A stretch of DNA of 64,000 bases from Planctomycetia bacterium TMED53 (lineage in GTDB: Bacteria > Planctomycetota > UBA8108 > UBA1146): contig NHDG01000060.1 of assembly GCA_002167285.1 (NCBI GenBank), forward strand, positions 6,208-70,207, written 5' to 3'. The notes under the pieces are model-generated. The model saw only the letters and a list, made by a program, of their open reading frames with translations, did not search any database and was not told where the DNA came from. Both the position numbers and the translations under genes were made by a program. Every line of letters begins with the position of its first letter. Position 1 is the first letter of the stretch. Below are positions 7,065 to 60,072 of this stretch, in pieces.

Positions 7065-7076
7065 GGAGAGAGCGGG

Positions 7077-44057: not shown

Positions 44058-45766
44058 GAAGAATTCCTCACGGTATCATTGAAGTTCATGGGATAGGGCT
44101 GATTGCCAAGATTCGGCAACACAGGATCGAACCAGGATCCTGAGGGAATTTGGTAACCGTACCGAGTGATGTCCTGAGCTCGGGTACGAACTGCCGCTCC
44201 GTACATCAAAGCATGGGCAACGGTGGCGACCCGTCTTTCACCAGCATTTTCAAGAATGCTGCCTTGGACCCACTCATTGAATGCTCCCATCGCTGGTCCG
44301 CACCAAACTTGGTAATCAAGGGCTCTTTCTGGGTTTCCGCTATTGGCCCAATCAGAGGATTTGCCAAGGTACCAGCGGAAAATGAGGGCCATGCGATGAT
44401 GTGAGTCTGACTCTGCTCTCTCTACTTGAGCAGGCTCTCTTTCGAGGAAGAAGTTTCGTGTGTGATTCCACACCTCTTCCAGAGGCATTCGAAAGATTTC
44501 TTTTTCAATACGAGCACGATCATTGACCGGAATTTCATCGATAGACTGATGGCTGCGATAAAGGTCTAAGAGTCTTCGCGCACGAGTTCCAAACATGGTG
44601 CCTCTGCGTAAAACCTGAAGGTGTACGCCCATCTCGAACATATCGGATGCCGGCGCCATGATGACATCTGCAGGCCCGGCTTGGGCGAGTAGATCTTTGA
44701 CGACAGGACTGGTTCCCGATTCGACGCAGGCTTGGTGCACGGAACCGACCACCACATATCCAGCTCCTAGTGCAAATGCTGAGGCGATCGCCGAGGGAGT
44801 GCCGAGTCCGCCTGCAGCACCGACTCGAACTTGGCGGGCTCTGGGAAGGTTGACTGCGATGTTGTCTCGTAGGTCGCAAAATGCTGGCACCAACGTGGAG
44901 AGAGGGCGGTTATCGGTGTGCCCTCCAGAATCGGCTTCTGCGGTGAGATCATCGCAAATCGGCCACTCACGAGCCCACTGTGCTTGATCTGCGGTGATTT
45001 CTCCCCGTTCAAGAAAGCTGCGTACCCACTCTTCTGGAGCCGGGGAGAGGAATCTCTTCGCGACTTCGAGACGCGAAGCTTTTGCCATAATGGAGATTTG
45101 CGGAGTGACCTTGCCGTTGACGTCGCGTTGTAAGCTTTGAATCCGCAATTTGACTAATGGCTCGGTCAAGTCGAGGTACGCACTCGCTTCAACATGGCGA
45201 ACTTTACGCGATCCCAAAATACGAGCCACTTCTGATTCGATCGTCGGCTCTGAGGGGCTATGGATGAGATTGCACCCCCAGGATCCACCTGGGTTTCTTT
45301 GTTCCAACTCTTCTAAAGCTTTGATCACGCGATCGGGAGTTTGTCCTGCCGCACCATAAAAAGCCAAGTTTCCTTGATGGGCCAAAGCAGAGACTAGTTC
45401 GGTGCTGGCGATTCCATTTGCCATGGAGCCACCTACGTATGCCTGCTTCAGTTGGTGATCTTGAATAAACTCGCTGCTTCCTAATGCTGTGGGTGGAATA
45501 GGGGGCAGGTAACCTTGAATCTGATCAGCAGTGACGGATGAAGAAGCGAAGTGATCATTTTCAGAGTTGGAGGCTGTCGTGAAAATTTGTGGATGATGGC
45601 TCTGGCCAGCGATGAGCCAAGCGCTATTGAGATTGGAAAATACTTCAGAGAAAGACACTTCCCGGAGGGCTTGAGTTTGGTTCAGTTTTTGAAACAAAGA
45701 GGGCTGCTGAGGAGCACCCTGGTGGTGTTCTCCCTGACCTTCATTTCCACCGAACCCGGTTGCCAT
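44054..45766 (-). CDS. pfaD: PfaD-family enoyl reductase (FMN-dependent, nitronate monooxygenase-like)
   Basis: 570 aa with YVGGSMANGIASTELV, GAAGGLGTP and SGGHTDNRP-type TIM-barrel ER motifs. It is the first gene of the cluster and is ATGA-coupled to pfaA. Confidence 0.8.
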   Translation of the reverse strand: MATGFGGNEGQGEHHQGAPQQPSLFQKLNQTQALREVSFSEVFSNLNSAWLIAGQSHHPQIFTTASNSENDHFASSSVTADQIQGYLPPIPPTALGSSEFIQDHQLKQAYVGGSMANGIASTELVSALAHQGNLAFYGAAGQTPDRVIKALEELEQRNPGGSWGCNLIHSPSEPTIESEVARILGSRKVRHVEASAYLDLTEPLVKLRIQSLQRDVNGKVTPQISIMAKASRLEVAKRFLSPAPEEWVRSFLERGEITADQAQWAREWPICDDLTAEADSGGHTDNRPLSTLVPAFCDLRDNIAVNLPRARQVRVGAAGGLGTPSAIASAFALGAGYVVVGSVHQACVESGTSPVVKDLLAQAGPADVIMAPASDMFEMGVHLQVLRRGTMFGTRARRLLDLYRSHQSIDEIPVNDRARIEKEIFRMPLEEVWNHTRNFFLEREPAQVERAESDSHHRMALIFRWYLGKSSDWANSGNPERALDYQVWCGPAMGAFNEWVQGSILENAGERRVATVAHALMYGAAVRTRAQDITRYGYQIPSGSWFDPVLPNLGNQPYPMNFNDTVRNSS

Positions 45767-45925: not shown

Positions 45926-48667
45926 TCAGGGCTGCACAATCAGCTCGTAGGAGAGATCCCCTGTCGTCGGAGAATCGGGGCCAGAGACCCTCAGTAGCAT
46001 GAATCCAGCGGGATTTGAGAGGGTTCCCAGGAGGAAAGGATCGAAGAAGAAGGGGGGGACTGCTACCGCAGACTGGAGAGTTGCCAAGCTCGCGGGGTCC
46101 ACCTGCTCGATGGTCGGGATCATCAAAGATCCTTGGCGGCGGCAGATCAACTCCACTTGGAGAGACGTGGTGGGGCTCACCTGTAAAAGAAACCAGTCCA
46201 CATCATTGGGTGTCTCCAATCCCCCAGATATACGGAGACTCCTGGCTGGAATCAGGGGCGTGGTCGAAGGATCATCATTCAGTAAGTCCAATGACGGGTC
46301 CTCCTCCACATGGAGGCCAACTTGATATGGGAAAACCCGATAGAGATCTGAACCATTATCCAATCCCGAATGGGGTAGAACTTTTATCGTGACTCGTTCG
46401 CCGGGAATCAGACCGGGCATGAGCAGATGCAGTTTTTCTCCATCGAGAACTTTGGTGGCATTTAGAGTTTCATTGACTCCGTTGACAAAAACGAACACCG
46501 AATTGACCACCTGCTCAGATGGAGGTCTGGAAAAGTGAAGAACCCAGCTGTCAGAGGATTGTGGTGTTGCTGGAGAAGGATCAATTGAAAACAACTGCGC
46601 TTGGCTGGAGGGGTCGGGAAGTGCAGGATCTGGCCCCACAAATGAGAGCGGATTGTTTCCACTCGGGCCAATATTTTGCGGTAGTTGGTCTTCTCCCAGC
46701 GTGAAGGGATTGCCGTTATTGAGTGCTAGAGAATCGTTAAGAGGGGTGGAGTCCTCAATAGGGCCAAATCCGTCTTCCCAGACGAAAATAGCCACTCCGC
46801 CGGGAGTACGTTGCGGTGGTGGATCTACGAGATACCTACCACTTTCGAGGATCGTGCAGGTGCGCAGGACACCATCGTCACCCAACTCGATCTTTTGACC
46901 GCTGGCTAATGGGAGAGGAGCAGTGGTGAAGAGGGTCTCATCAGGAAGCCACTGACCCCATTGATATGTTTCTGGTTCAGCGAGCACCATTGGTTCACCG
47001 AAGCGATTAAAGTTGCCTGAAAAATCTGGCTGAATTGATCCAGGAAGTAGGCTGTATCTCACGGTTGTCAGATCGTATTCAGAACTCAAGCCTGTCACGA
47101 TACTGTCCTGAACCTGAATCATTCCACGAGGATTTTCTAACGGAGAAAGACCGCTGCCCGAGATCCAGCAATTGGTTACGAAAACACTACACAGGTCCAA
47201 TATCGATACTCCGACACGACCATTTCCTAGGATATTACAGTTTCGAATCAGAGCCTCTGACCCTGTGGGTATCGATGAAACAGAAACTCCATCGGTTCCA
47301 TTGGCGGAGATTTGACAGCGGCTGACTCGAAATGCAGCCGGTGCATCCCCGTCTAAGAAAACACCGGACAGGCCATTATCATTAATCAGGGAATCATCGA
47401 TTCGAACTCGAATGTCAATTTGATCCTCTGGGGTTGAATCGATATCGATGACGATGCCCTCAAGAAAGTTGTCGGTGACTTCGCAGTTGCGAATTTTTAC
47501 TTTAGATCCTGAGGGAAGATTAGCCTCAGGGAGTGTTCCCTCAATGGCTGCGAGATCAAGGTCAATTCCTTCGTCTCCATTGCGAAGTACCCTGCAGCGA
47601 CTGATTTCAACTTCAGCTTCTCGACCGAAGCCTGAATAGATCCATTGGCTTTCGATGCCTTCGTTGAGATTGTCACGGATTTCTGAGTTATCGATGGTGA
47701 TCTTGGGAATTCCGACGATTCGAAGTCCCTCTCCGTTGCAGTTACTAATGAGGCAATCAGCAACAAACGCCTCGATGGTGTTTCCTTCAAGGAAATCACT
47801 TCTGAAGTCAACTCCTTGAGTGATGGCTCCAGACATTTGGCAACGGGTGATCCTGCAGTAGCAATCTTCGGCATAAACGCAGCTTTCTGCGATGTTGTTT
47901 CCTGCCAGGATGAGTCCATCGATCCCGCTCAATAGATCACCCGGTCGAATATTGACGAGATCGGTTGGGAAAAGGATGCCGAATTGACTTGGTTGCTGGA
48001 GTGGGTCCCGGAGATTTGGATCAAAGGACGAATCAAATCCTCCGAAGACCATCATCCCTGGGAGAAGGAACAGGTTTTCAGGATAGAGTCCTTCAGAGAT
48101 GTGAAAGTTTACGCCTCCCAGTGAGAGACTCGCTGCGATCGCCTGCCCCATTGTTGGGAATGCCGATTGCGGAGTCTCCCCATCGGCCCCTGACAGAGGT
48201 GCACCTGAGCGTACATATCTGATCGTGTTGGGAGTGACGGGCCACGACGGCATCTCCGTACTGACTTCCAGATCGGAATCGCGAGCGAGGACGAGAACTT
48301 CAACCGTAATCCCATTCTGCAATTCTTCAATTCGAATGCTGGTATCTCCAGCGATGATTGCAGTCGGTTCACTGAAGTCTTTCGGTTCTCCCAGAGGCGT
48401 AACAAATACCAAGTATTCGATGAGCTCGGGATCCGTGAAATCATCGTTGGCAGGTTCCCAAGAGACTTGGATCCATTCGTCACCACCGATGAGATCGGTG
48501 ACTCCACCAAATCTTGGTTGGGTGACGATCGCCAAACCGCTGGATCCGAGTCCGGAAGGCCCCTCACTAGGGATCTGATCAATCGTTGGCCTAGCTGGTG
48601 GTGTAAATCTATCGCAGCCCATCGATAGCAGGATTAGCAATAGTAGGAATTGACTTATCCGCACCAT
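45926..48667 (-). CDS. Lipoprotein with Fn3-like domain and right-handed parallel beta-helix (PbH1/CASH) repeats
   Basis: Lipobox MVRISQFLLLLILLSMGC. Fn3-like WIQVSWEPANDDF..YLVF. At least 6 repeats of the type I(R/S)xCxIxxNxxxGIxI (e.g. IRNCEVTDNFLEGIVIDI, VSRCQISANGTDGVSVSS). Confidence 0.65.
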   Translation of the reverse strand: MVRISQFLLLLILLSMGCDRFTPPARPTIDQIPSEGPSGLGSSGLAIVTQPRFGGVTDLIGGDEWIQVSWEPANDDFTDPELIEYLVFVTPLGEPKDFSEPTAIIAGDTSIRIEELQNGITVEVLVLARDSDLEVSTEMPSWPVTPNTIRYVRSGAPLSGADGETPQSAFPTMGQAIAASLSLGGVNFHISEGLYPENLFLLPGMMVFGGFDSSFDPNLRDPLQQPSQFGILFPTDLVNIRPGDLLSGIDGLILAGNNIAESCVYAEDCYCRITRCQMSGAITQGVDFRSDFLEGNTIEAFVADCLISNCNGEGLRIVGIPKITIDNSEIRDNLNEGIESQWIYSGFGREAEVEISRCRVLRNGDEGIDLDLAAIEGTLPEANLPSGSKVKIRNCEVTDNFLEGIVIDIDSTPEDQIDIRVRIDDSLINDNGLSGVFLDGDAPAAFRVSRCQISANGTDGVSVSSIPTGSEALIRNCNILGNGRVGVSILDLCSVFVTNCWISGSGLSPLENPRGMIQVQDSIVTGLSSEYDLTTVRYSLLPGSIQPDFSGNFNRFGEPMVLAEPETYQWGQWLPDETLFTTAPLPLASGQKIELGDDGVLRTCTILESGRYLVDPPPQRTPGGVAIFVWEDGFGPIEDSTPLNDSLALNNGNPFTLGEDQLPQNIGPSGNNPLSFVGPDPALPDPSSQAQLFSIDPSPATPQSSDSWVLHFSRPPSEQVVNSVFVFVNGVNETLNATKVLDGEKLHLLMPGLIPGERVTIKVLPHSGLDNGSDLYRVFPYQVGLHVEEDPSLDLLNDDPSTTPLIPARSLRISGGLETPNDVDWFLLQVSPTTSLQVELICRRQGSLMIPTIEQVDPASLATLQSAVAVPPFFFDPFLLGTLSNPAGFMLLRVSGPDSPTTGDLSYELIVQP

Positions 48668-48688
48668 TCAGACCTCAAAAATCAGACC

Positions 48689-50491
48689 TCAAAAGTAGTA
48701 CTTGAATTGGATCGAAGAAAACCAACCGGAATCAGGATTTGTACCAAATGCATCTCCAGGTTGAAAAAATCCGACTTCAAATTCCATGTCCAGCTGATCG
48801 AAGACATCGTTCAATCCGATGACGAGATCGATTTCTGTACCCAACTCAGAGTCAATTCCGTTTGGGCTAATCTTGAGTCTGGATCTGCGTAGAAAGTCCG
48901 CCGGCTCTACTTGATTATACTGGTGAAAGGCAATATCTACGCTGGTGTTTTCCCTAGGCAAGAAGCCGGCACCAAGGGTGAGTATCGACATGTTCGATAG
49001 CTCGGGTCTCAGCAATACACCTAGATACCTGTAGGAAGAAATTCCAAAGTATCGGGAATTATTGTCCTGGTAGCCTGTTTGCCTAAAGTTGTTGTCTGTG
49101 CCATCGTCGGGATCGTCATCTCCTGATCCCCAAGCCCAGCCACCAAACACGTATGGTTTTCCCCACAAATCGCCAAATCTTCTGGCAGCTTTAAGGTCGA
49201 ACCCAAAGGCAGAGATTTCGTCAAATCCAGATACGCCGGCAACGTAGGCGGCGTCAGCCCACCAGCGCAAGTCTCCACCCATGGTTCTTCCGTGAGACTG
49301 CAAGCCGATGAAGAAAGGGGATTCATTGGGAAGTTGAACGGTCAATTCGGGGTCGAATTCGCGATCCTGAATTACATCAATAATATAAAGCGAATGTTGG
49401 GTTTTTGATTCTGGTCGATAGGTGCCAACCAATATGTGCTGGTGTCGATCCTTCAACTCGACAGGTGGATCTCCAAAAAATGTCGACCATGAAGCCTCAA
49501 CTGAGTAGGGGCCTTCTTCCCAAATCAAACGCACCGCATCCAGTGAGCTGTCGTAAAACCACTCTCTGCCTTCGTCAAAATCCATTCGTCCTATTTGAAG
49601 AGAAATGGGATAGCCACCGATGCCGCGTTGGAAGTAATACAGCTCTTCCAATCCAAGGTCTTCTTCAGAGAGGGTTACTGCTTCGTCATCTTCGTCAGTT
49701 GTCGAACTTTTTGATCGACCTTTTCCAAAAATGAAACGATCTTCGTCGATGGACCAAAGGGCTTGCAGCGAGATGGACCACTCTTTGTCGGTTCTATCTG
49801 CTTGATCTAAATCAGAGAGATCAAGGTTGTTGCGCTCTTCGAACTCATAGTAGAGCCTTCCGGCAAGTCCTAACCGACCGTCAAGATAGCTTCTGCGCGA
49901 ATTTGGTCTCCGCTCATCCCGGTCATACAAAGGCTTCGCAATTTTGCGAAATACTCCACCGGGTATTTCAGTGGAATTTCCAATCCGACAAGGGATTCCA
50001 TGAATGATGAGGATTGGGACACCATCTTCATCGATTTCTTGCGCTTCTACGTATCCCTCTAACTCCAAGAGCCCGATTTTTCTTTCTGAAGGTGAAGTCT
50101 CAACTTCAACTTCGATGGCTTTGAAAACCAATGGAGAAACAAATTCACCTTCAATTTCGACTCGCCAACCGATTTGAATCTCATCAAGTTCGTGCGATTC
50201 CTCATCATCTTCGGAGTCGTCGAAATCAGTTTCTTCATCGATGAGGATGGTGAAGGGGCCAACCTTCATCTGAGATTGGTCTGTGTAAACCGCATCGACA
50301 AATCCTTTGATCTCTAGATAGTCATCGTCTTCTTCCCGAACTAATTTGACGGCCTCAAGAACTTCGCCGTCGAATCTTCCATCTACTTCTACTCGGGTTC
50401 CCGCGGGGAACTGAATTTCATTCTTCGAATCGTCGGATTCTGCGGATTGCCCAAGAAGCAAAAATGTCACCAATATCATGTTGATGTTCAT
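48689..50491 (-). CDS. Outer-membrane beta-barrel of the alginate-export (AlgE-like) family with acidic N-terminal beta-rich periplasmic region
   Basis: Signal peptide MNINMILVTFLLLGQSAES (its ATG overlaps the upstream stop as ATGA). FRQTGYQDNN motif, alternating beta-strand pattern and C-terminal ...SSIQFKYYF (terminal Phe). Confidence 0.6.
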   Translation of the reverse strand: MNINMILVTFLLLGQSAESDDSKNEIQFPAGTRVEVDGRFDGEVLEAVKLVREEDDDYLEIKGFVDAVYTDQSQMKVGPFTILIDEETDFDDSEDDEESHELDEIQIGWRVEIEGEFVSPLVFKAIEVEVETSPSERKIGLLELEGYVEAQEIDEDGVPILIIHGIPCRIGNSTEIPGGVFRKIAKPLYDRDERRPNSRRSYLDGRLGLAGRLYYEFEERNNLDLSDLDQADRTDKEWSISLQALWSIDEDRFIFGKGRSKSSTTDEDDEAVTLSEEDLGLEELYYFQRGIGGYPISLQIGRMDFDEGREWFYDSSLDAVRLIWEEGPYSVEASWSTFFGDPPVELKDRHQHILVGTYRPESKTQHSLYIIDVIQDREFDPELTVQLPNESPFFIGLQSHGRTMGGDLRWWADAAYVAGVSGFDEISAFGFDLKAARRFGDLWGKPYVFGGWAWGSGDDDPDDGTDNNFRQTGYQDNNSRYFGISSYRYLGVLLRPELSNMSILTLGAGFLPRENTSVDIAFHQYNQVEPADFLRRSRLKISPNGIDSELGTEIDLVIGLNDVFDQLDMEFEVGFFQPGDAFGTNPDSGWFSSIQFKYYF

Positions 50492-51585
50492 TTGAAGACC
50501 CCTTGCCATTTCCCTGTTCCCATTAGTAACTCTTCCAGATCTTCTTCTATTTTTTGCAAGAGATCGGAAGGTCTTTGCCGACGTGAGTAAATCAGAAGCA
50601 ACCGTGCAAATGTAGACGCGGTCCAGGTCTTTAGTCTTTCACTTGGAATACCACTTTGCGCGAGCATATTCGAAATTCTGGAGGCGCATTCCAGCCAAGG
50701 GACTGGTAGTCCCTGAAGAGATCGCAGACGGAGATGAGCAATGATATTTCCTGCATCGAGGGCCGGATCAGAGATCGCCAGTAAGTCTAAGTCTAGAAGA
50801 GTTACTGTTGATTCTGATATCAAGACTTGCTTGTCGTGAAAATCCCTGTGGCAAACTACTGGTGGTATCTCATTTAAAGATTTCAAACGTTCGATCACCG
50901 TATCAACCAGCCTTTTTACACCAGTAGGGGGCGCAGCCAGAATTCTGTGAAAAACTTCGTCTCTTTTTTGTAAAATTTTAATCTCGTCTTTTGCTGAATG
51001 AGTGGGAAGAGTGTTATCAGCCTCACTCTTTGCCAACCAAGACAAGATGTCAACTATGCTATCGATGTGAGTGGAATCCCATTGCCCAGATTTCCACAAT
51101 TCATTGAGGCTTTTACCCTGGGCTTCTTTAACGGTGAGCACCAAATTTTTGTGGTCCCATTGAGTGATCTCTGGAATAGAAATCGAATTGTCTGGAGACT
51201 TTTTCGAGAGGTATTGCCAACGTTCGAGGACTTGGCGGTTCTTTCTGAACACTTTTGCGAAGCAATTGTCTCCTAGCCTGAAAATAGCGCGGCTCCCCAA
51301 GCGCCAAGCCAGTAGCTCCACGGAGATTCCATTTGTTATCCAATGATTAATCACTGAAGAAAGTGCCGGAAGTCTCCTGTCTTCAAGGGGGTGCTGTTCT
51401 TTGAGTTTTCCCTTTTCTGATAGGTGGTACCACTTTGTTGCGTTCTCTCCTGATTGCCCATGCAGGCAGTACCAGCCACCCTTTCGAGATTCTTCCACGC
51501 GGAGCCATGGCCCGGTGCTTTCAAGTGCATTGGCTAATTCAGGAATCAAGTGCTGGGTCCAAAGATCAGAATCTTGACTATTCAT
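50488..51585 (-). CDS. Aminoglycoside-phosphotransferase (APH)/choline-kinase-fold kinase, substrate unknown
   Basis: Catalytic loop CHRDFHDKQVLI and Mg-binding LLDLDLL. Confidence 0.6.
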   Translation of the reverse strand: MNSQDSDLWTQHLIPELANALESTGPWLRVEESRKGGWYCLHGQSGENATKWYHLSEKGKLKEQHPLEDRRLPALSSVINHWITNGISVELLAWRLGSRAIFRLGDNCFAKVFRKNRQVLERWQYLSKKSPDNSISIPEITQWDHKNLVLTVKEAQGKSLNELWKSGQWDSTHIDSIVDILSWLAKSEADNTLPTHSAKDEIKILQKRDEVFHRILAAPPTGVKRLVDTVIERLKSLNEIPPVVCHRDFHDKQVLISESTVTLLDLDLLAISDPALDAGNIIAHLRLRSLQGLPVPWLECASRISNMLAQSGIPSERLKTWTASTFARLLLIYSRRQRPSDLLQKIEEDLEELLMGTGKWQGVFK

Positions 51586-52903
51586 CTTTCAGACCCTCCA
51601 GCAATCTGAGGCAGCGATCAACAGCTGAGGTCAGTTCATCGGGCCATGTGGGTGATAAAGATCTGAACGGTTCAAATGCTTTACGCAAACAAGCCAGCGA
51701 CCTGCCGAGATTGATTTCACCTTCAGAGATCTTCTGTGGGGTGACAGATTGATACGAGTCGAGTAGATGAGTGACGACAGCTTCTGATACACCACTTGAG
51801 ATCAAATCTTCCATCAAATTTGCTAAATCAAAGCAAGCATAGCCTCTTCCAGCTCGATCAAAGTCGAGAAGGTACAAATCCTTGTCGTCAGACAGAATCT
51901 GTTTTTGATGGAGATCCCCATGTGCAAGAACTGAAGAATGAAGGCTTAAGGTTGGCAGCTTCTTCTTAAGTCGATTTGCAAGAGTCAAAAGATTGAATCG
52001 AACCTCTGGAAGTAGGCGAGATAGATCCTCAATCAGGATATCGACTTCCATGACCAAAACTTGAGGTGGAGAGTGGGTGGTAAGTTCTAATGGAATTTGG
52101 TGGAACTCATTGATTGCCTTCGCAGTATTTTCAATCAGTTCAGTAGAGCGTTCTGCACCAAAATCGGGGTGTTTGCCATCGATCCATTCATGGCCAAAGA
52201 TATTCATTGCTGGGCTTGTTCCTACAAACCTTGGTGTCTTAAAGTGGTTGCAGCCTTCTGTTGCATTGGAGATTGAAAGCGCCAAATTTTTGGATTGGGT
52301 AATCGACTTTCTATTCTCGATTTTCAAATGCAGTAGTTTACGAATTTTTAAGTCTTCTTGGAGGTTTCGTAACTTGAGCTTGGTTTGAAGTACTGCTCGC
52401 CTTCCGGGTTTATAAGCGATCAATTTGTGGCGAGTAAGGCTGCGTTGAAGTCTCCATTGGTCGTAGCTAATTGCACCCAGCATGGGTTCAATTAATCGTC
52501 GGAACCGATTGGGTTCAAAAATTCTTCTCAACTGAGGAATCTCTTCATCTCCTGGGAATGGCAAGCACACAGCCATCAATTCTTCATCGACGAATGGCTT
52601 TAAGTGGGCGGAGCTTGCGCCCAAATTTTTGGCCACTATCTTTTCGTGAAATTCCTTAGCTGAGGAGAGGGTCGAGAATAGACGAACGTTCATGCCTTGT
52701 GGAGGGGAATCAGCAGTTCCCGGTTCAGTCCCACTGATGAACAGTCTACACGACTCCGGTTTGTTACGCAGGTATCGGATGGAACTTGGCAGGTCTGGTA
52801 TGTCAAAGACCAGTCCGGATTTTTGCCACTCTTTCCAAGGCTCTCCGGAAAGAAATGACGAAAGACCCGGTGGTGCTTGTTTAGGTACTGGGAAACCACT
52901 CAT
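51578..52903 (-). CDS. APH-fold kinase with ~200-aa N-terminal extension, substrate unknown
   Basis: AHGDLHQKQILSD and LLDFDRAGRGYACFDLANL motifs. Confidence 0.6.
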   Translation of the reverse strand: MSGFPVPKQAPPGLSSFLSGEPWKEWQKSGLVFDIPDLPSSIRYLRNKPESCRLFISGTEPGTADSPPQGMNVRLFSTLSSAKEFHEKIVAKNLGASSAHLKPFVDEELMAVCLPFPGDEEIPQLRRIFEPNRFRRLIEPMLGAISYDQWRLQRSLTRHKLIAYKPGRRAVLQTKLKLRNLQEDLKIRKLLHLKIENRKSITQSKNLALSISNATEGCNHFKTPRFVGTSPAMNIFGHEWIDGKHPDFGAERSTELIENTAKAINEFHQIPLELTTHSPPQVLVMEVDILIEDLSRLLPEVRFNLLTLANRLKKKLPTLSLHSSVLAHGDLHQKQILSDDKDLYLLDFDRAGRGYACFDLANLMEDLISSGVSEAVVTHLLDSYQSVTPQKISEGEINLGRSLACLRKAFEPFRSLSPTWPDELTSAVDRCLRLLEGLKDE

Positions 52904-54744
52904 GAATTTCCTCCCAACAGCTTTCGTGGGAGTATTCTTTCGGTGATCTGACCACTCTTCAGAACTATTCTGGATTCAAAACTGGAGGTCAATTCTTCGT
53001 CATGGGATATGACAATCAAGGTTTTGCCTTTGAAGTCCTCTAGCAGCATTTGCTGAATCAAAGTTCTGCTTTCAGGATCAATCGCTGTGGTCGGTTCATC
53101 TAGGACGACAATGGGGGAGTTTCGCAGCAATACGGTGCTGAGTGTGAGTCTGCGCTTTTCACCTCCCGAAAGATCCTGGCCTCCCTCTGTAAGTTCTCGA
53201 TCCAAACCATCAGGATCATCGAGGAGGAAGTCGCATCTCGCTCGCTTTAACGCATCAATCATTTGTTCCTCTGAAGCGTCTGGCTTGTGGAATTGTAGGT
53301 GTTCCCGAACGCTGCCTGACAAGATGAAGCTCTCCTGTAACACGATGGAGAGTTGCTCTCTCATGCTTTTTAGTTCCCAATTTTTAATGGGAATGCCGTC
53401 GATTGAAATGTGTCCTTCATCTGGCTCGAAGAGTCGGAATAACAAAGCGGTCAATGTGGTCTTCCCTGAACCGTTGGGCCCAGTCAAAACCACATGCTCC
53501 CCTTCAGAAATATCAAGGTTCAAATTGTTGATGACCTTGCGATCGGGGTCTTCCGATTGGGTTTGATCTTCAGCGAGTGAAGTGGAGGTCGAGTGGTAGG
53601 AAAATGTCAAATTCCGAAATTGAATAGATCCTTTGAATGGCGGAGCCTCGACGGCATCAGGATGATCTGATTCTTCAGGATTGATCGTTAAAATTTCTGA
53701 TATTCGATCTGCACATGCCGCTGCTTTACCAATTTTTCCTGATAGTCGGGCTGCTTTTCGTAAAGGTTTCTGTAATGAACGAACATATGAAATGAAAACC
53801 AATAGATCCCCTGGTGTCATCGCTGCCCCGGCGAATTGAGGGGACTCTGAGCTGATCAACACCCGGTATGCTCCTGCCAGGAGAACTACCGATAGGCCCC
53901 CAGCAAAAATTAACTCTGTCCACCTAGAAAGGGCTGCTTGGAGCCTCGTTGCCCGGACACCCTGACGTAAGGAGGATCGATTTTTACGAGCAAACTTTCG
54001 AACTACTTCAGATTCACGCCCTAAAGTCTTAATCAACTTCAATGAGGACAAGCCCTCACCAGTCGTGAAAGCGATGTCGCCTTCATGTTCTCTTTGCTTT
54101 TTAGCGACTTTGGTAATTTTGACACTGAAGACTCTGGCCAATACGGTAATCAAAACCAGAACCACCAATGAAACCAATGAAAGTTGCCAATCGATCAGTC
54201 CCATCAATGCCAAGGTAACAACAGCCTGTAGAAGCCTTCCGAAAAAATCGATCAGTTCTGTAGAAAGCACATCCCTGAGCATCGGTACGTCGCCCGTGAT
54301 TCGTACCAATAGGTCTCCCAGCTTTTGGTCTCTGTGAAACCTCAATGAAAGGAGCAAGAGGTGGGAGTAAACACGCTTACGTAGTTTCATGATCATTCGC
54401 TGACCGGCAACTGCACTGGTTACAGTTCTGATATATCCGGCGATTCCTTGCCCCACTGAAATCAGAAGTACTGCGAGGCTGACGAATGCTAAGAATTGAA
54501 TTGGCTGGCTGGCAGGCCACTCTGGATTAATAAACGGGAGAGTGTCTGCATTTTTTGGCATCAGTAGGCCGTCGAAAATATACTTCACTGGCCATGGAGC
54601 TAGTAGAGCGAATCCGATTTCAAAAATTAGTGCAACAGAAGAGGCTCCAAGAAGGGGTGCTTGAGCCTTGAGAAGATCACCGTGTTTACCAGTGATCGTG
54701 CGCCAATCATGGAGACCTTTTTTTAAGGTAGTCGAGGCGCTCAT
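52900..54744 (-). CDS. ABC exporter, fused permease/ATPase (MsbA/PglK-like type I exporter)
   Basis: About 6 N-terminal TM helices. GPNGSGKTT (Walker A), LSGGEKRR (signature) and VVLDEPTTAID (Walker B). Confidence 0.85.
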   Translation of the reverse strand: MSASTTLKKGLHDWRTITGKHGDLLKAQAPLLGASSVALIFEIGFALLAPWPVKYIFDGLLMPKNADTLPFINPEWPASQPIQFLAFVSLAVLLISVGQGIAGYIRTVTSAVAGQRMIMKLRKRVYSHLLLLSLRFHRDQKLGDLLVRITGDVPMLRDVLSTELIDFFGRLLQAVVTLALMGLIDWQLSLVSLVVLVLITVLARVFSVKITKVAKKQREHEGDIAFTTGEGLSSLKLIKTLGRESEVVRKFARKNRSSLRQGVRATRLQAALSRWTELIFAGGLSVVLLAGAYRVLISSESPQFAGAAMTPGDLLVFISYVRSLQKPLRKAARLSGKIGKAAACADRISEILTINPEESDHPDAVEAPPFKGSIQFRNLTFSYHSTSTSLAEDQTQSEDPDRKVINNLNLDISEGEHVVLTGPNGSGKTTLTALLFRLFEPDEGHISIDGIPIKNWELKSMREQLSIVLQESFILSGSVREHLQFHKPDASEEQMIDALKRARCDFLLDDPDGLDRELTEGGQDLSGGEKRRLTLSTVLLRNSPIVVLDEPTTAIDPESRTLIQQMLLEDFKGKTLIVISHDEELTSSFESRIVLKSGQITERILPRKLLGGNS

Positions 54745-55898
54745 CGTATCGCCTCTACAGCTTTGAGGATCTGCTGGGCGCGCATTTTCCAGGTTGCATT
54801 ATTTAAGACCCAGTCTCTGCATTTCTTGCCCAAGTCCGGTTGCTGATCCAGTCGCGATAAAACCTTTTGTATTCCTTTGGCAAACTCAGCTGGGTTCCCA
54901 GGGGTGATCAGTGCTCCACGATCTTCTTTAATCAGTTCGGAGATTTGTCCGCGATCAGTGGCAACGACAGGCAGTCCACAGCTGAAGTACTCAAAGATTT
55001 TCAAAGGAGAGAACCAGAACTCATCCATCTGGGGATAAGGTGCGACGCCCAAATCGCAATGCCCCAGCCAGGATCCGACAGCGGAGTGAGGGATACTTCC
55101 TGTGAAATGAACCCTTCCTGAAAGCCCTTTGTTTTGGACACTGACTTCAAAGGCATGTTTTCCAGGTCCGTCGCCAATACATAAGAGGTGAGCATCAGAG
55201 CCGAGTTCTTTGACTAGAATTTCGAAAGAGTGAAGTAAATCGTCGATGCCGTGCCATGGCCTGAATGTTCCAGTGAAACCTATGAGTGGAACGTCATTCG
55301 GGGGGAGATTACTGGGTCGCTTCGAATCTGAAGGTTTAAAGACTTCTTGGTCAACTCCGTTGGGAACCAGTTCTACTCCCTCACTATGCCCACGTTCTGA
55401 TTCAACCCACTCTTTGATCTCTTTGGAGACACAGATGACGACATCGGATTCCCTTAGAAGAAGACGAGAGAGACCACTGGCAAGATTTTCATTCGCCAGT
55501 TGACGATATTTTTTTGATTCTAAAGCAAGAGGGCTATTCACTTCCAAGACGAATGGAACTTCGTGTTTCCTAGCGAGGTAAAGGCCTCCGGGGTGCCACA
55601 GGCTATATCGCTCATACACAAAGTCATGAACGGTTTCGACATTATCGAGGCGTGCTAGAAAAAGCCGGCTTTCCCTCTCTTCTACAGATTTATGTTTCTT
55701 GCGAGGGGGGAGTTCCATCTCATGTATCGGCACTCCTTCAAGTTCTGTTGCCTCGGGTCGAATGGTGTACAAATCACCACCCAATCCGAGTTGGCGGAAT
55801 GCCTTACAGATCGATGCCACATGAATGCTTGCGCCCTTTTGACCAGGAACGGGGATTCCGGGATCTGCGCAAATGTAGGTGAAGTTGCTCAGAGTCAT
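54741..55898 (-). CDS. Glycosyltransferase, GT4-like (GT-B fold)
   Basis: 385 aa. N-terminal GxxxPGQKGASIHV and a C-terminal E-x7-E-like region (SPLKIFEYFSCGLPVVATD). Confidence 0.7.
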   Translation of the reverse strand: MTLSNFTYICADPGIPVPGQKGASIHVASICKAFRQLGLGGDLYTIRPEATELEGVPIHEMELPPRKKHKSVEERESRLFLARLDNVETVHDFVYERYSLWHPGGLYLARKHEVPFVLEVNSPLALESKKYRQLANENLASGLSRLLLRESDVVICVSKEIKEWVESERGHSEGVELVPNGVDQEVFKPSDSKRPSNLPPNDVPLIGFTGTFRPWHGIDDLLHSFEILVKELGSDAHLLCIGDGPGKHAFEVSVQNKGLSGRVHFTGSIPHSAVGSWLGHCDLGVAPYPQMDEFWFSPLKIFEYFSCGLPVVATDRGQISELIKEDRGALITPGNPAEFAKGIQKVLSRLDQQPDLGKKCRDWVLNNATWKMRAQQILKAVEAIR

Positions 55899-55900
55899 CG

Positions 55901-57166
55901 TTATTCCCCGTGCAGGGCACTGCTTTCAAAGTGAGCCTTGAGAGTGCCAACATTTGTTGAAAGATTGAAAAGAGTCTCTGCTCTTTTTCGTGCTGAACCG
56001 ACTTCCCAATCTCCTGATTCCACACGGCTTTTGAGATTTTTGATTCCTTCAGCCATGGCTTTGGCATTCCCAGGTTCAACTAACTCGCCAGAGCCGTCAG
56101 CCAAGATCTCCGGACAACCTGTCAATGTTGTGGAGACCGCTGGTAGATCTAAAGCGAGAGACTCGAGGAGAACTGTGGGCAGGGCATCCATATTGCCGTC
56201 TGCGTCAGGGATGCAAGCGAGAGCCATCATGGTCGCTTCGGAGCAGCTTCTTCTTACTTCTTCGATAGGAAGGGCTCCTAAAAACTTTACGTGATTTTCA
56301 AGGCCGAGTCGCTGGCTCAAGTGAAGGAGGCTCTCTTGGTCTTCACCATCTCCGATGATGCTGACTTCCAAGTTCAATTCTTCATCTAATAGCATCCGCA
56401 CGGATTCAAGGAGCACGCCAAAACCCTTTTTGGGAACCAGGCGTCCGACACTGATGATTTTGATGGGATCTGCACTCAAAGGACTTCTATCAGTTGGAAC
56501 TTCAAAGAAATCCAAATTGATTCCGTTGTAGAGCTTTTTGACCTTTTCAGCATCGATACCAGGAGTGTGGTCGAGAATGTACTTACGATTAAAGTCACTG
56601 ACCGTGATCGCAAAGGCGGATTTTTCGGTCAGTTCCCGAAATAGATTTCTATTGACGGTTTCTCGGAAGATATCCTTTGCATGACATGTAAATGAAAATG
56701 GGATTCCGTAGAGAATGTTGACCAATGCGGCCATGCGGGTGGAAATCGTGGCGAAGTGCGCATGAAGATGCTGAACTCCTCGCGATTTCGCCAAAGCGCC
56801 GATCCAGAGAGCTCGCAAAAGCATGTCGAGCTCTTTAGGAATCGAATGTTCACGCAAGAAATCGACAGCTTTTTGCCAGCGGTCCATACTAGGAACTAAT
56901 CCGGGCGGCAATTTCGATAATTTGTCCCAGTAAGATTCAGGCTTTTCTCTAAGAACGTATTCGATGGTGAGTTTGAGCTCGCTGAGGCTCCCGTGGAAAC
57001 GACCATCCCCTGGGGGCATTAGGCTGAAGACCTCAACTTCGACACCTTGTCGTTCAAGTTCAAGAATTTCATTCAAAATGAAAGTCTCTGACAACCTTGG
57101 AAACATTTTCAGAATGTAACCAACCTTGAGAGAGTGTTTAGGCTCTGAGGAGCTTTCCTTCGACAT
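55901..57166 (-). CDS. Glycosyltransferase, GT4-like (WcaL-type N-terminus)
   Basis: VGYILKMFPRLSETFILNEILELERQG resembles the WcaL-like family. C-terminal ..LLESLALDLPAVST. The start at MSKESS (57166) is chosen to limit overlap. The track ORF extends to 57283. Confidence 0.7.
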   Translation of the reverse strand: MSKESSSEPKHSLKVGYILKMFPRLSETFILNEILELERQGVEVEVFSLMPPGDGRFHGSLSELKLTIEYVLREKPESYWDKLSKLPPGLVPSMDRWQKAVDFLREHSIPKELDMLLRALWIGALAKSRGVQHLHAHFATISTRMAALVNILYGIPFSFTCHAKDIFRETVNRNLFRELTEKSAFAITVSDFNRKYILDHTPGIDAEKVKKLYNGINLDFFEVPTDRSPLSADPIKIISVGRLVPKKGFGVLLESVRMLLDEELNLEVSIIGDGEDQESLLHLSQRLGLENHVKFLGALPIEEVRRSCSEATMMALACIPDADGNMDALPTVLLESLALDLPAVSTTLTGCPEILADGSGELVEPGNAKAMAEGIKNLKSRVESGDWEVGSARKRAETLFNLSTNVGTLKAHFESSALHGE

Positions 57167-58430
57167 CGTAATCTTCTTTCCGAACTCGATTCTGTTGTTG
57201 GGTAAGGACGTCCTCGACCCTGGAGAGGAAGTTTCCGATTCCATCCATGCACAGCCCTGCTTCCTCTGCAGAAGGCGGCTCATGAATATCTAAAGACTCT
57301 TGAATCGTTTTCTTCAACAAGTGGGGAGACAGATCTTCAGGGTGGATGACCTTCAAGAGGTTTAACTCAGAAAACTTTGAGGCCCGAAGCCATTGCTCCA
57401 TACGTGGCTTGACTCTGGGGACGATGATGGTGGGTTTACGAACAGCGATCGCTTCCAATGTAGCGTTGTAACCACCCATTGAGACGATGGCGTCTGCGGA
57501 CCGTAAATGGTCCTCTAGGTGCGTTGTGAATCGTAAGATTTCAAGATTACGACAGCCCTGGAAGCGGTTGATGAGTGCTCGGGCAACCGATCGATCCATA
57601 TGTGGACCGGTGATCAGTGTCCCCAGGAATTTCTCAGGATTTTTGCCTAGAGCTTCAAGAAAAGTCGATCCCAGTGGAGTGCCATCTTCGCCACCTCCTG
57701 CGACGCAAACGATCTTCTTTTGGGAAGGGAACTTTCTCCGCAACGAGTTGAGGATCTCTTGATCCAAGGGGTTGGGTCTAATTCGACGGAGATATCCCAG
57801 GTAATCGATGCGTTCTCGAGTCTTCGGGGTGAGATTGTAAAGGCCTCCCAGATCGAAGATTTCCCGGTTGCCGTATACCCAAATATGATCGTAAAGAGAT
57901 TCAACGAGAAGATTGCTACCAGATCTCTTCCAACTCTCTTGAACAGATTGGCTTTCGTCAATGATGTCGCGCAGCCCTATCGCGAGTTGAGTTCCTCGTG
58001 ACTTGAGATCGGCGAGAAGCGGGACCAGTTCTCCAGTTAGACCTGTCGGGACATGATCGACAACGAGTAGATCAGGATCGAATGAAAGGAGTTCTCTTCT
58101 GATTTTGTCGCGTCTGCGTTCAAGGGCTGACAAAAGATCTAGTTGCGGATTTCGAGGGATATACCTGCCCTCTTCATCCTTTGTGACTGGCTCCATGAGG
58201 ACGAGTCGAGTATTCGCTGGGAGTTGGAAGAAGCTTGCCTTAGGCGATCCAGTAAGAAGTAAAATCTCAACATTGTCGAGGTGCTCTTGGACCCGATGCG
58301 CCAAGAGTAGGCAGCGTCGAAAATGCCCAAGCCCAAATCCGTCATGGCTGTAGAGAGCCAATCTACGGGGCTGGGGGGGGGTCACCCCTCGCAATTGGGA
58401 AATTGTGTCTTCACCCAAGTTCATCGACAT
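57138..58430 (-). CDS. Glycosyltransferase of the GT28-C-terminal/COG4671-like type (first gene of the operon)
   Basis: LALYSHDGFGLGHFRRCLLLAHRV N-terminus and C-terminal ..SMGGYNATLEAIA. Carries a C9 homopolymer at codons 17-20. Confidence 0.6.
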   Translation of the reverse strand: MSMNLGEDTISQLRGVTPPQPRRLALYSHDGFGLGHFRRCLLLAHRVQEHLDNVEILLLTGSPKASFFQLPANTRLVLMEPVTKDEEGRYIPRNPQLDLLSALERRRDKIRRELLSFDPDLLVVDHVPTGLTGELVPLLADLKSRGTQLAIGLRDIIDESQSVQESWKRSGSNLLVESLYDHIWVYGNREIFDLGGLYNLTPKTRERIDYLGYLRRIRPNPLDQEILNSLRRKFPSQKKIVCVAGGGEDGTPLGSTFLEALGKNPEKFLGTLITGPHMDRSVARALINRFQGCRNLEILRFTTHLEDHLRSADAIVSMGGYNATLEAIAVRKPTIIVPRVKPRMEQWLRASKFSELNLLKVIHPEDLSPHLLKKTIQESLDIHEPPSAEEAGLCMDGIGNFLSRVEDVLTQQQNRVRKEDYDVEGKLLRA

Positions 58431-58470
58431 GCCTCTCGTGACCCACTATGAAATGGTCAGAGAAATAACC

Positions 58471-58485
58471 GCAAATCAAATACCA
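58471..58485 (-). promoter_or_regulatory. Candidate sigma54 (-24/-12) promoter: TGGTAT-N5-TTGC
   Basis: The minus strand reads TGGTATTTGATTTGCG. GG and GC show the canonical 12-nt G-to-G register, 41 nt upstream of the ATG at 58430. A sigma54-dependent activator gene lies immediately upstream. Confidence 0.4.
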
Positions 58486-58686: not shown

Positions 58687-60072
58687 TTACAGCCCTCTTT
58701 TATCGAGTCTATGCCGTAAAGCTCCACGTGTCAGTCCCAACAATCGGGCGACTTCCGAGACATTACCGCTGGTGAAGTCCAGTGCCTGTTGGAGTAGTCG
58801 GGTTTCCACTTCAGCAAGAGTGCAGGAATGGTCGGAAAAATCGAATTGGATGTTGTCCAGTGCCAGTGGTCCATGCACCACATTACCTTCACTCCCATGC
58901 AAGTCGAGGGAGGGAGAAGCGAGGGTGTCTTCTGCGCTAATCAGCACCATTCTCTCGATGGTATGTGCCAACTCGCGAATATTTCCTGGCCAGCTGTACT
59001 TGCGTAACTCCGCACGAACTGAATCTGGAATATCCAGCTGTTCCTTACGATATTTCTTCCCATGGATTTCAACAAAGTGATCGATCAGGAGATCTAGGTC
59101 TTTGCCACGATCTCTGAGGGCTGGAAGTGTGATAGAGACGACCTTCAATCGGTAGTACAAGTCCGATCGAAATGAACCATCCCGGGATGCTTGTTCCAAA
59201 TTTTGGTTCGTTGCTGCGATGATTCTGACATCCGCAGAGTATTCACGGGTTCCCCCAACTCGGCGGACTTTTTTGGTTTCAAGCACATTGAGTAATTTGG
59301 TTTGCATTTCGAGGGGCATATCGCCGATCTCATCGAGAAAGATCGTCCCTCCAGCTGCAACTTCAAAGAGGCCCTGTTTCTGTTGAGAGGCCCCGGTGAA
59401 TGAGCCCTTTTCATGGCCAAAGAGTTCACTCTCGATCAAGTCTTTGGGTAGTCCGCTACAGTTGACCTGTAAGAAGGGGAATCTTGATAAGCTTCCCTTT
59501 TCATGAATGTGTTTTGCTAGCAAATCCTTACCGACACCGGTTTCACCACCGATCAATACGGTTGGAAGTTCGGCAGCTTTGTCGATGGGGATTTGAGACA
59601 ACTGATCGACCACTTCTAAGACTTGTTTGATCGCTGGACATTCCCCTACGATCGACTGTTTCTCAGTAAGGGCAGAAACACGTTCATGTGCATCAACCAG
59701 TCTTCTCATCTCGGCATTTTGAAGCTCTCGCTCGACGACAAGGTTGAGTTCTTCCAGGTCGAGAGGCTTTTCTAGATAATCGAGAGCGCCTTCTTTCATC
59801 GCCTCGACCGCGCTGTCGACTGAAGCGAATGCTGTCACCATCAGTACGGGGACTTCCGGAAGCTCTTGGCGCAAGCTTCTTAGGACCTCTAGTCCATCGA
59901 TGTCAGGAAGTTGAACGTCGAGGATCGCCATATCGATCGACTCGTTTTTGATAATTTTAAGAGCTTCCGCGCCAGTCTCTGCGGGGAGGCAACGATGGCC
60001 TCCACGACCTAACTCAAGTGTCAGTGATTGAAGCAGAGGAATCTCATCATCCAGAATGAGGATCTGTGCCAT
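58687..60072 (-). CDS. Sigma54-dependent Fis-family response regulator (REC-AAA+-HTH, NtrC type)
   Basis: REC domain with ILDVQLPDIDG. AAA+ domain with GETGVGKDLLAK, EKGSFTGA (GAFTGA variant) and FLDEIGDM. C-terminal HTH GNVSEVARLLGLTRGALRHRL. Confidence 0.9.
   Translation of the reverse strand: MAQILILDDEIPLLQSLTLELGRGGHRCLPAETGAEALKIIKNESIDMAILDVQLPDIDGLEVLRSLRQELPEVPVLMVTAFASVDSAVEAMKEGALDYLEKPLDLEELNLVVERELQNAEMRRLVDAHERVSALTEKQSIVGECPAIKQVLEVVDQLSQIPIDKAAELPTVLIGGETGVGKDLLAKHIHEKGSLSRFPFLQVNCSGLPKDLIESELFGHEKGSFTGASQQKQGLFEVAAGGTIFLDEIGDMPLEMQTKLLNVLETKKVRRVGGTREYSADVRIIAATNQNLEQASRDGSFRSDLYYRLKVVSITLPALRDRGKDLDLLIDHFVEIHGKKYRKEQLDIPDSVRAELRKYSWPGNIRELAHTIERMVLISAEDTLASPSLDLHGSEGNVVHGPLALDNIQFDFSDHSCTLAEVETRLLQQALDFTSGNVSEVARLLGLTRGALRHRLDKRGL

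Follow-up and report, generated by a model that had tools for sequence, protein, structure and literature searches.

The DNA analysed here, referred to as the window, is a stretch of 64,000 nucleotides from contig NHDG01000060.1 of Planctomycetia bacterium TMED53 (assembly GCA_002167285.1), and its minus strand carries eight co-directional genes of a putative envelope-glycan cassette (45926–58424). Coordinates were taken from independent gene calls on a TARA Oceans metagenome scaffold that matches the window exactly (ERZ28654788, scaffold_17), and these calls returned the same tight succession that an earlier note on this DNA had described, with junctions, in order, of –29, +2, –4, –4, –8, –4 and +21 nt. 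The first gene encodes a GT28/GT1-like glycosyltransferase (GT) of the GT-B type (57138–58424; Glyco_tran_28_C, 43.9 bits) and is followed by two GT4 genes with Glycos_transf_1/Glyco_transf_4 matches in Pfam (GT4 a, 55901–57166, called at 421 aa; GT4 b, 54741–55898). Next come an ABC half-transporter of the exporter type (52900–54744), in which a transmembrane domain (TMD) and a nucleotide-binding domain (NBD) are joined (ABC_membrane, 156.5 bits; ABC_tran, 108.8 bits), a kinase of the APH/choline-kinase fold with an N-terminal extension of ca. 150 aa (kinase 1, 51578–52903) and its distant paralog (kinase 2, 50488–51585). The series closes with an outer-membrane barrel of the AlgE family that bears an N-terminal, beta-rich DUF5666 domain (48689–50491; DUF5666, 35.8 bits) and a beta-helix protein with a lipobox-like signal (45926–48667; Beta_helix, 66.7 bits). 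The profile searches placed every one of these domain assignments above its Pfam gathering score. Sequence-based prediction gave neither a transmembrane segment nor a signal for the GTs and kinases, several transmembrane segments for the ABC protein, and N-terminal signals for the barrel and the beta-helix protein.

The eight genes are embedded in a ca. 39-kb string of genes on the same strand, which runs from a beta-helix paralog, a histidine kinase and a sigma-54 response regulator through the eight genes to a PfaD/PfaA/PfaC-type polyunsaturated fatty acid (PUFA) synthase, oleABCD and a phosphopantetheinyl transferase gene. The string terminates at a convergent gene and aconitase, and the rest of the window is of housekeeping nature. 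The earlier note had remarked on the lack of Wzx/Wzy and of outer-membrane polysaccharide export (OPX), polysaccharide co-polymerase (PCP) and GT2-synthase components, and the Pfam searches indeed found no Wzx, Wzy, OPX, PCP, GT2 synthase, TPR or PilZ domain in the eight genes or in the genes on either side.

The spread of this cassette was followed with the barrel profile, which was scanned against a single genome from each GTDB species, and with tblastn, for which all window proteins served as queries. Loci in these species-level genomes were informative when they extended 8 kb or more upstream of the related barrel, and 54 did so. The three GT genes, the ABC gene and both kinase genes were present in 38 of them, and at least three of the four GT and ABC genes plus a kinase in 46. 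Within a close clade of marine Planctomycetota, the complete arrangement including pfaD was found in 16 loci, with a single exception (L030). The whole order (histidine kinase, response regulator, GT28, GT4, GT4, ABC, kinase 1, kinase 2, barrel, beta-helix, pfaD, pfaA) was retained at barrel identities of 61%, 45% and 34%, and because full synteny persists in relatives whose barrels are only 34–45% identical, the arrangement is not due to chance. In more distant loci (barrel ca. 28–39% identical) seven genes still occurred together, in other Planctomycetota, in Gammaproteobacteria (Woeseia, Lysobacterales, Halioglobus, Competibacteraceae), in a Rhodospirillales metagenome-assembled genome (MAG) and in Nitrospirota/Manganitrophaceae MAGs; in the Woeseia, Lysobacterales and Halioglobus MAGs all seven genes were present in shuffled order. 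No pfa/ole genes were found within 10 kb of these distant cassettes. The co-occurrence analysis that the earlier note had called for thus revealed a seven-gene core recurring in several phyla, and the proposed eight-gene unit has to be amended: the operon is real, but the conserved unit comprises seven genes, the beta-helix lipoprotein being an accessory at the level of a clade.

The conserved core is thus a six-gene inner module (GT28-like GT, two GT4 GTs, ABC protein, kinase 1 and kinase 2), joined by the outer-membrane barrel in diderms. Beta-helix proteins and linkage to pfa/ole are lineage-specific additions. The carriers are almost all MAGs. Homologues of the barrel and kinase 1 were few in an index of 5.8 billion proteins, and those with a source name came from Planctomycetota MAGs. 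With a gammaproteobacterial kinase 2 as tblastn query, no match was obtained among the PLSDB plasmids. Two MAGs labelled Bacillota and Candidatus Paceibacteria (L017, QNYK01000079.1; L076, JBLIMI010000408.1) contained planctomycete-like copies of the cassette, barrel included, which suggests binning or labelling errors. A Dehalococcoidia match (P0118) was rejected as a carrier of the cassette on account of its unrelated APH context.

One genome carried the inner module without the barrel. The record deposited as Jannaschia sp. R86511, an alphaproteobacterium (L089; GCA_042466345.1, JAXHCD010000001.1:3695191-3716501), displayed GT28-GT4-GT4-ABC-kinase 1-kinase 2 in the order of the window at 27–36% identity, with a hexapeptide acyltransferase occupying the position of the barrel. 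Its GC content is 76.7% in the cassette region, and its electron transfer flavoprotein alpha subunit falls in the same cluster (at least 90% identity) as that of Aquipuribacter (Actinomycetota), so the record is probably mislabelled and the genome actinobacterial. The barrel would then be absent from a probable monoderm version of the cassette, and its presence probably tracks that of an outer membrane. In a separate metagenomic contig (L092; ENA ERZ925375, 1-12082), GT28-GT4-GT4-ABC was accompanied by a single kinase and a GT4-methyltransferase fusion, and an unrelated, small outer-membrane protein of 298 aa stood in place of the AlgE-like barrel.

Against the APH profile, whose gathering score is 23.2 bits, kinase 1 scored 46.5 and kinase 2 33.9 bits. 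Alignment of the kinase 1 family revealed that K194, E266, D330, Q335 and D347 are kept, and in kinase 2 the residues K111, E201, H246, D248, H250, Q253, D265 and D267 are invariant across phyla. With their Lys, Glu, Asp and DFD residues retained, both kinases are predicted to be catalytically intact. Their catalytic loops (HGDLHQKQ in kinase 1 and HRDFHDKQ in kinase 2) follow an H-x-D-x-H-x-x-Q pattern, with Gln where most APH enzymes carry Asn. The loop of the kinase 2 profile aligned in HMMER with the HGDFHVGQ loop of glucosamine kinase 6hwj, and maltokinases were also among the weak matches, although the maltokinase and glucosamine kinase matches had E-values of only 1e-4 to 1e-2 over ca. 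60–90 residues. The fold was corroborated for kinase 1 by structure prediction (pLDDT 88.6) and Foldseek, in keeping with the small-molecule kinase assignment of the earlier note. Its Foldseek matches were generic (PsiK, choline kinases, maltokinase, APHs and homoserine kinase; TM-scores of 0.45–0.6).

Kinase 1 and kinase 2 are distant paralogs of each other (hhalign, 99.5%, E = 9e-23). In a HMMER search of 1.84 billion representatives, the kinase 2 family comprised 2124 representative relatives at E ≤ 1e-30, and, of the 141 top-ranking representatives, roughly half were two-domain proteins of 650–1050 aa that combine kinase 1 and kinase 2, the C-terminal half being kinase 2-like. Such fusion in many relatives (Rosetta-stone evidence) suggests that the two kinases work jointly. 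The fused proteins P0134-P0273 and L035:6816-9338 had the kinase 1-like part preceding the kinase 2-like part, and cluster look-ups of ten fused kinases for named carriers gave metagenomic entries only.

The barrel scored 104.8 bits against Alginate_exp (PF13372), for which the gathering score is 25.2, and AlgE was the sole significant relative of its profile in the PDB (E = 1e-16). The predicted structure, of moderate confidence (pLDDT 72.6), consisted of ca. 18 strands (residues 207–599) following a beta-rich N-terminal domain, and the top 17 PDB matches retrieved by Foldseek were all AlgE (E = 2e-19, target-normalised TM-score of ca. 0.65). The acidic stretch TDFDDSEDDEESHELDE, earlier presented as an N-terminal extension, is present at ca. 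residues 94–110 of the precursor, but it lies inside the beta-rich DUF5666 region, where it is partly conserved, and does not form a free tail. Outside the barrel, DUF5666 recurred on sulfatase/alkaline-phosphatase-superfamily proteins and on one histidine kinase, i.e. on three different periplasmic components in all. As a separate observation, barrel residues ca. 455–490, WGSGDDDPDDGTDNNFRQTGYQDNNSRYFG, are Asp/Asn-rich and very strongly conserved within a low-confidence region of the model; the segment resembles a calcium-binding loop and worked as a search pattern across phyla.

The nearest PDB sequences of the first GT were GT1 UDP-glycosyltransferases (YjiC, OleD-type), as weak matches. 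These nearest solved relatives act on lipophilic small molecules. The enzyme is a candidate for initiating glycosylation of a lipophilic acceptor. The best NCBIfam match of GT4 a was EpsE (164 bits against a cut-off of 400) and that of GT4 b was TIGR04063 (107 bits, below cut-off). Neither the GTs nor the ABC protein reached an NCBIfam equivalog cut-off, the latter scoring 296 bits against the 602 required for MsbA (TIGR02203), 238 against 867 for NF008381, 214 for the glucan exporter and 134 for PglK. The designation "MsbA-like" is thus appropriate for the shared TMD-NBD architecture and fold, but not as an MsbA assignment. Likewise, the resemblance of the beta-helix protein to AlgG-type enzymes is confined to the level of the fold, since a sequence search of the PDB yielded no match for this protein. 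It is a predicted lipoprotein, going by the N-terminal LLSMGC only, and a predicted accessory with a periplasmic or surface location. The close clade has its gene, and seven distant Planctomycetota loci contain similar ones.

Upstream of the eight genes, the window encodes a regulatory pair that the earlier note had left out, together with the promoter element described below. The pair consists of a sensor histidine kinase (60047–61546, called at 499 aa), with two transmembrane segments and HAMP-HisKA-HATPase domains, and an NtrC-type sigma-54-dependent response regulator (58687–60072) with Response_reg, Sigma54_activat (216.6 bits) and HTH_8 domains. The response regulator gene adjoins the cassette in all close relatives. 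The periplasmic part of the histidine kinase showed no similarity to DUF5666. In the interval that separates the regulator from the first GT gene, ca. 45 nt 5′ of the latter, we read a sigma-54-type promoter element, TGGTATTTGATTTGCG (58470–58485), its GG-N10-GC element being TGGTATTTGATTTGC (58485–58471), and at least 16 of 18 related loci had a TGGC-N7-TTTGC-like element at the equivalent position. A –24 GG/–12 GC element next to an enhancer-binding protein makes this a predicted sigma-54-type promoter of the cassette. Further upstream lies the second beta-helix gene (61551–63731; Beta_helix, 55.3 bits), whose product has a lipobox-like N-terminus with one hydrophobic segment and shares 31% identity with the 913-aa downstream protein across 440 aa (E = 7e-64).

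Directly downstream on the same strand, and separated from the beta-helix gene by a gap of 159 nt, follows the PUFA-synthase/ole cluster, which had likewise been left out of the earlier account. It begins with a PfaD-family enoyl reductase (44054–45766; TIGR02814, 568 bits against a cut-off of 449) and continues with two megasynthases (30196–44057, Pfam): a PfaA-like protein with ketosynthase (KS), acyltransferase, four acyl carrier protein, ketoreductase and dehydratase (DH) domains, and a PfaC-like protein with KS/chain-length-factor and four FabA-type DH domains. The oleA-oleB-oleC-oleD-like genes and the phosphopantetheinyl transferase gene occupy 24849–30199 (Pfam); the best specific matches were olefin beta-lactone synthetase for OleC (460 bits, cut-off 850) and 2-alkyl-3-oxoalkanoate reductase for OleD (371 bits, cut-off 580). 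This layout matches the pfaD-pfaA-pfaBC plus oleABCD arrangement of the "Type I" pfa-like clusters, which have been tied to ole genes and proposed long-polyolefin synthesis and noted earlier in Deltaproteobacteria and Gemmata (Shulse & Allen, PMC3098273). A term look-up in the same paper gave no result for glycosyltransferases, kinases or ABC transporters. Linkage of pfa/ole to the cassette was limited to the one marine planctomycete clade. No terminator-like hairpin was found in the 159-nt gap between the beta-helix gene and pfaD, which is no proof of read-through. A candidate sigma-54 site upstream of pfaD, TGGGTGCTTCCATGC, was dropped as a shared promoter because it lacks conservation in relatives, and we make no claim for it.

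The distant cassettes differ in their accessory genes. Sulfotransferases of the 3′-phosphoadenosine-5′-phosphosulfate-dependent type were found in four loci, sulfatase/alkaline-phosphatase-superfamily proteins in eight (often directly 3′ of the barrel) and CarboxypepD_reg proteins in 15. DUF5666 matches near or below the Pfam cut-off were detected in two of the three sulfatase/alkaline-phosphatase-superfamily proteins that were scanned. The sulfotransferase and sulfatase-type accessories point to the handling of anionic esters and to ester-decorated products in these lineages. Individual examples include sulfotransferase genes (PF13469) beside the ABC gene in gammaproteobacterial cassettes (L064:13636-14667, L085:9880-10875, L073:2473-4536), alkaline-phosphatase-superfamily genes adjoining the barrel (L039:4266-6284, L045:11134-13071, L040:766-2814) and a HisKA_2 histidine kinase with a periplasmic DUF5666 (L047:9990-12320).

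The routes by which bacterial surface glycans are considered to leave the cell are few: via Wzx/Wzy with OPX, via ABC-2 transporters with OPX, via a synthase with a barrel or via a recently proposed composite of short OPX and barrel. The Pseudomonas alginate apparatus combines the AlgE barrel with the Alg8/Alg44 synthase, AlgK, AlgX and AlgG. The cassette shares with it a true AlgE-family barrel of ca. 18 strands and a neighbouring beta-helix protein, a place taken by AlgG in the alg operon. However, the cassette has no GT2 synthase, cyclic di-GMP receptor, TPR lipoprotein, acetylation or lyase genes; its inner-membrane step is an ABC half-transporter, and its barrel carries a DUF5666 domain that AlgE lacks. 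With no GT2, PilZ or TPR domain in the eight genes or flanks, the locus does not qualify as synthase-dependent secretion, and neither does it correspond to ABC-dependent capsule or O-antigen export (KpsMT, Wzm/Wzt), its transporter being of the ABC_membrane type and Poly_export and Wzz domains being absent.

The closest functional analogy that we can name is the Escherichia coli O9a system, in which cytoplasmic GT4 enzymes (WbdA/B/C) build the glycan, a kinase-methyltransferase (WbdD) terminates it before export by Wzm/Wzt, and the initiating transferase is encoded elsewhere. Assembly by GT4 enzymes, a kinase and ABC export are alike, whereas the cassette has a fused TMD-NBD protein instead of the ABC-2 pair Wzm/Wzt, two APH-fold kinases without methyltransferase, and a barrel without ligase or OPX. 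The half-transporters MsbA, PglK and NdvA (ChvA), which flip lipid-linked glycans or export cyclic glucan, have the same architecture as the cassette's ABC protein, with similarity at the family level; the cassette, however, is without oligosaccharyl transferase or glucan synthase and couples its transporter to kinases and a barrel. Similarly, the actinobacterial maltokinases (Mak/Pep2) and glucosamine kinase share with the cassette kinases the APH fold, a length of ca. 440 aa and the H-G/R-D-x-H-x-G/K-Q loop. The similarity to the maltokinase family is nevertheless marginal, since Pfam detected no Mak_N_cap in the kinases and no TreS or GlgE in the eight genes or flanks, and since the cassette kinases form a paralogous pair or a fusion. 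An AlgE-like 18-strand barrel outside the synthase-dependent pathway also occurs in the Myxococcus EpsX/EpsY translocon, a composite of D1D2-OPX and barrel that is Wzx/Wzy-dependent and needs OPX and PCP (Schwabe et al., bioRxiv 10.1101/2022.04.04.486985), both of which the cassette lacks. Topical full-text searches (alginate export with APH, GT and ABC; DUF5666; Planctomycetes hentriacontanonaene) returned no description of such a cassette, and no NCBIfam equivalog covers it, in keeping with the earlier note, which could map it to no named system. The parts are known, but their combination is undescribed and widely conserved.

On balance, we lean towards reading the cassette as a dedicated pathway under sigma-54/two-component control, in which a short glycan is built on an acceptor, phosphorylated and exported through the envelope. 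The histidine kinase and response regulator would activate the sigma-54 promoter 5′ of the first GT gene, upon which the GT28/GT1-like enzyme would glycosylate a lipophilic or lipid-linked acceptor at the cytoplasmic face and the two GT4 enzymes would extend the glycan. The paired kinases may then add phosphate to hydroxyl groups of the product's sugars or place a cap at its end, after which the MsbA/PglK-type half-transporter would carry it over the inner membrane and the AlgE-like 18-strand barrel over the outer membrane, the fused DUF5666 possibly substituting for an OPX, PCP or TPR adaptor. In the marine planctomycete clade, the two beta-helix lipoproteins might, once the product is outside the cytoplasm, bind it or modify it, and the physical joining of the operon to the PUFA-synthase/ole cluster probably reflects co-ordinated envelope remodelling. 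The earlier note had already proposed a non-canonical pathway for a phosphorylated glycan or glycolipid outside any named system, and the proposal gains strength from the cross-phylum conservation of the cassette, the missing barrel in a probable monoderm, the intact sugar-kinase-like enzymes and the fact that no equivalog cut-off was reached. The data show the tightly coupled operon, the domain identities, the catalytic competence of the kinases, the AlgE-type barrel, the conservation of the promoter and the co-occurrence of the seven genes, whereas the product with its acceptor and sugars, its phosphorylation (including where on the product it takes place and what it is for) and the direction in which the product is transported are inferred.

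Several observations weigh against this pathway. The cassette contains no nucleotide-sugar genes, initiating phosphoglycosyl transferase or ligase. The generic Foldseek matches of kinase 1 mean that substrate specificity is not readable from the fold, and ABC proteins of this fold can import as well as export. The monoderm case is one genome, its label corrected by inference. Furthermore, whereas the AlgE pore is electropositive, as expected for anionic cargo, the lumen of the cassette barrel looks acidic, with 23 Asp/Glu versus 14 Lys/Arg among lumen-facing residues (a crude strand-phase count on a moderate model) and a pI of 4.3 for the barrel. The cargo may thus be something other than a plain anion, or it may be bridged by cations.

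The acidic barrel is better accommodated if the kinases are anomeric sugar-1-kinases, comparable to maltokinase and N-acetylhexosamine kinases, whose sugar-1-phosphate products are used by the GTs either as such or once nucleotidylated elsewhere, so that the exported glycan itself is unphosphorylated and, for instance, alpha-glucan-like. The GT4 family includes enzymes that use sugar-1-phosphates, the catalytic loop is common to glucosamine kinase and maltokinase, a GlgB-like gene adjoins the actinobacterial copy, and maltokinase was the only listed Foldseek match to span the whole 441-residue kinase 1 including its N-terminal part (468 columns). Nevertheless, we consider this scheme unlikely, given the weakness of the maltokinase and glucosamine kinase matches (E-values as above), the undetected Mak_N_cap, the lack of a nucleotidyl transferase, TreS or GlgE in the cassette, and the accessories elsewhere that indicate ester-decorated products. 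Distinctly unlikely, in our view, is that the eight genes and pfa/ole constitute one biosynthetic unit, in which a long-chain lipid derived from the PUFA synthase and Ole proteins is glycosylated, phosphorylated and exported, as for heterocyst glycolipids with their HglE-type synthases, GT and exporter. Such a unit would agree with the single strand, the hairpin-free gap, the resemblance of the first GT to GT1/GT28 enzymes acting on lipophilic acceptors, and the adjacency of pfaD/pfaA, seen in 16 loci and at barrel identities as low as 34%. The seven-gene core, however, occurs in several phyla without pfa/ole within 10 kb, clade member L030 has no pfaD downstream, the candidate sigma-54 site 5′ of pfaD is not conserved, and thioester reductase and hydroxylase genes are lacking. 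Moreover, by established Ole chemistry (Shulse & Allen, PMC3098273) the expected end product of the Ole proteins is a hydrocarbon and would offer nothing to glycosylate.

Phosphorylation could also be biosynthetic or self-protective during production of a small secreted glycoside or glycosylated peptide, as with the export of streptomycin-6-phosphate or the class V lanthipeptide kinases. Both kinases weakly matched the class V lanthipeptide kinase LxmK in NCBIfam (27–30 bits), ABC exporters of the same fold also export peptides and antibiotics, and the alkaline-phosphatase-superfamily enzymes located by the barrel elsewhere could remove an ester after export. Those LxmK scores are, however, far under the cut-off of 315, precursor peptide, lyase, cyclase and sugar-tailoring genes are missing, the upstream intergenic region carries just a 16-codon open reading frame, and a breadth of 2124 representative clusters would be unusual for a specialised metabolite. 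We therefore hold such a natural product to be very improbable, and a ribosomally synthesised, lanthipeptide-type identity was rejected on the LxmK score and the absence of precursor and lyase. A locus of the lipopolysaccharide (LPS)-core type, with GT4 core transferases, WaaP/WaaY-like sugar kinases and the lipid A flippase MsbA, would have superficially similar content, namely GT4 enzymes, kinases and a transporter with MsbA as its top match. Apart from the missed MsbA cut-off, the kinases match APH and not Kdo/WaaP (18.6 bits for Kdo kinase against a cut-off of 142), GT9/GT30 heptosyl or Kdo transferases are absent, and LPS transport does not involve a barrel of the AlgE type. Profile scores and the occurrence of the cassette in a probable actinobacterium led us to discard an LPS-core identity, for which the chances are minimal.

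Returning to the phosphorylated, exported glycan, a bolder form of this pathway seems to us possible but doubtful. The cassette would then represent a fourth kind of trans-envelope route, in which an oligosaccharide or glycolipid built in the cytoplasm receives a tag from the kinase pair and passes from an MsbA-fold ABC half-transporter to an AlgE-like barrel, with DUF5666 both replacing OPX, PCP and TPR components and binding the product; the route would be widespread and, in marine Planctomycetota, co-ordinated with the synthesis of polyunsaturated lipids and olefins. In either form, the cassette mixes parts of different surface-glycan routes and adds a kinase pair, while dispensing with the usual adaptors. 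Its carriers, among them marine Planctomycetota, Woeseia and Nitrospirota-type lineages, are environmentally important and mostly uncultured. Identification of the product would name many genes now annotated as "hypothetical" or "APH family", give DUF5666 its first function, put phosphorylation to the test as a general tag for glycan export, and possibly explain how surface chemistry is coupled to the production of polyunsaturated lipids.

Elsewhere in the window, on the plus strand, a gene for a 4Fe-4S/NrfD fusion protein is followed by one for a molybdopterin oxidoreductase (5538–9935), together indicating a respiratory-type complex unrelated to the cassette. A PD-(D/E)XK nuclease-domain protein is encoded at 2626–5403, and MiaE, QueG, a UbiA prenyltransferase and aconitase are encoded close to the 4Fe-4S/NrfD genes.

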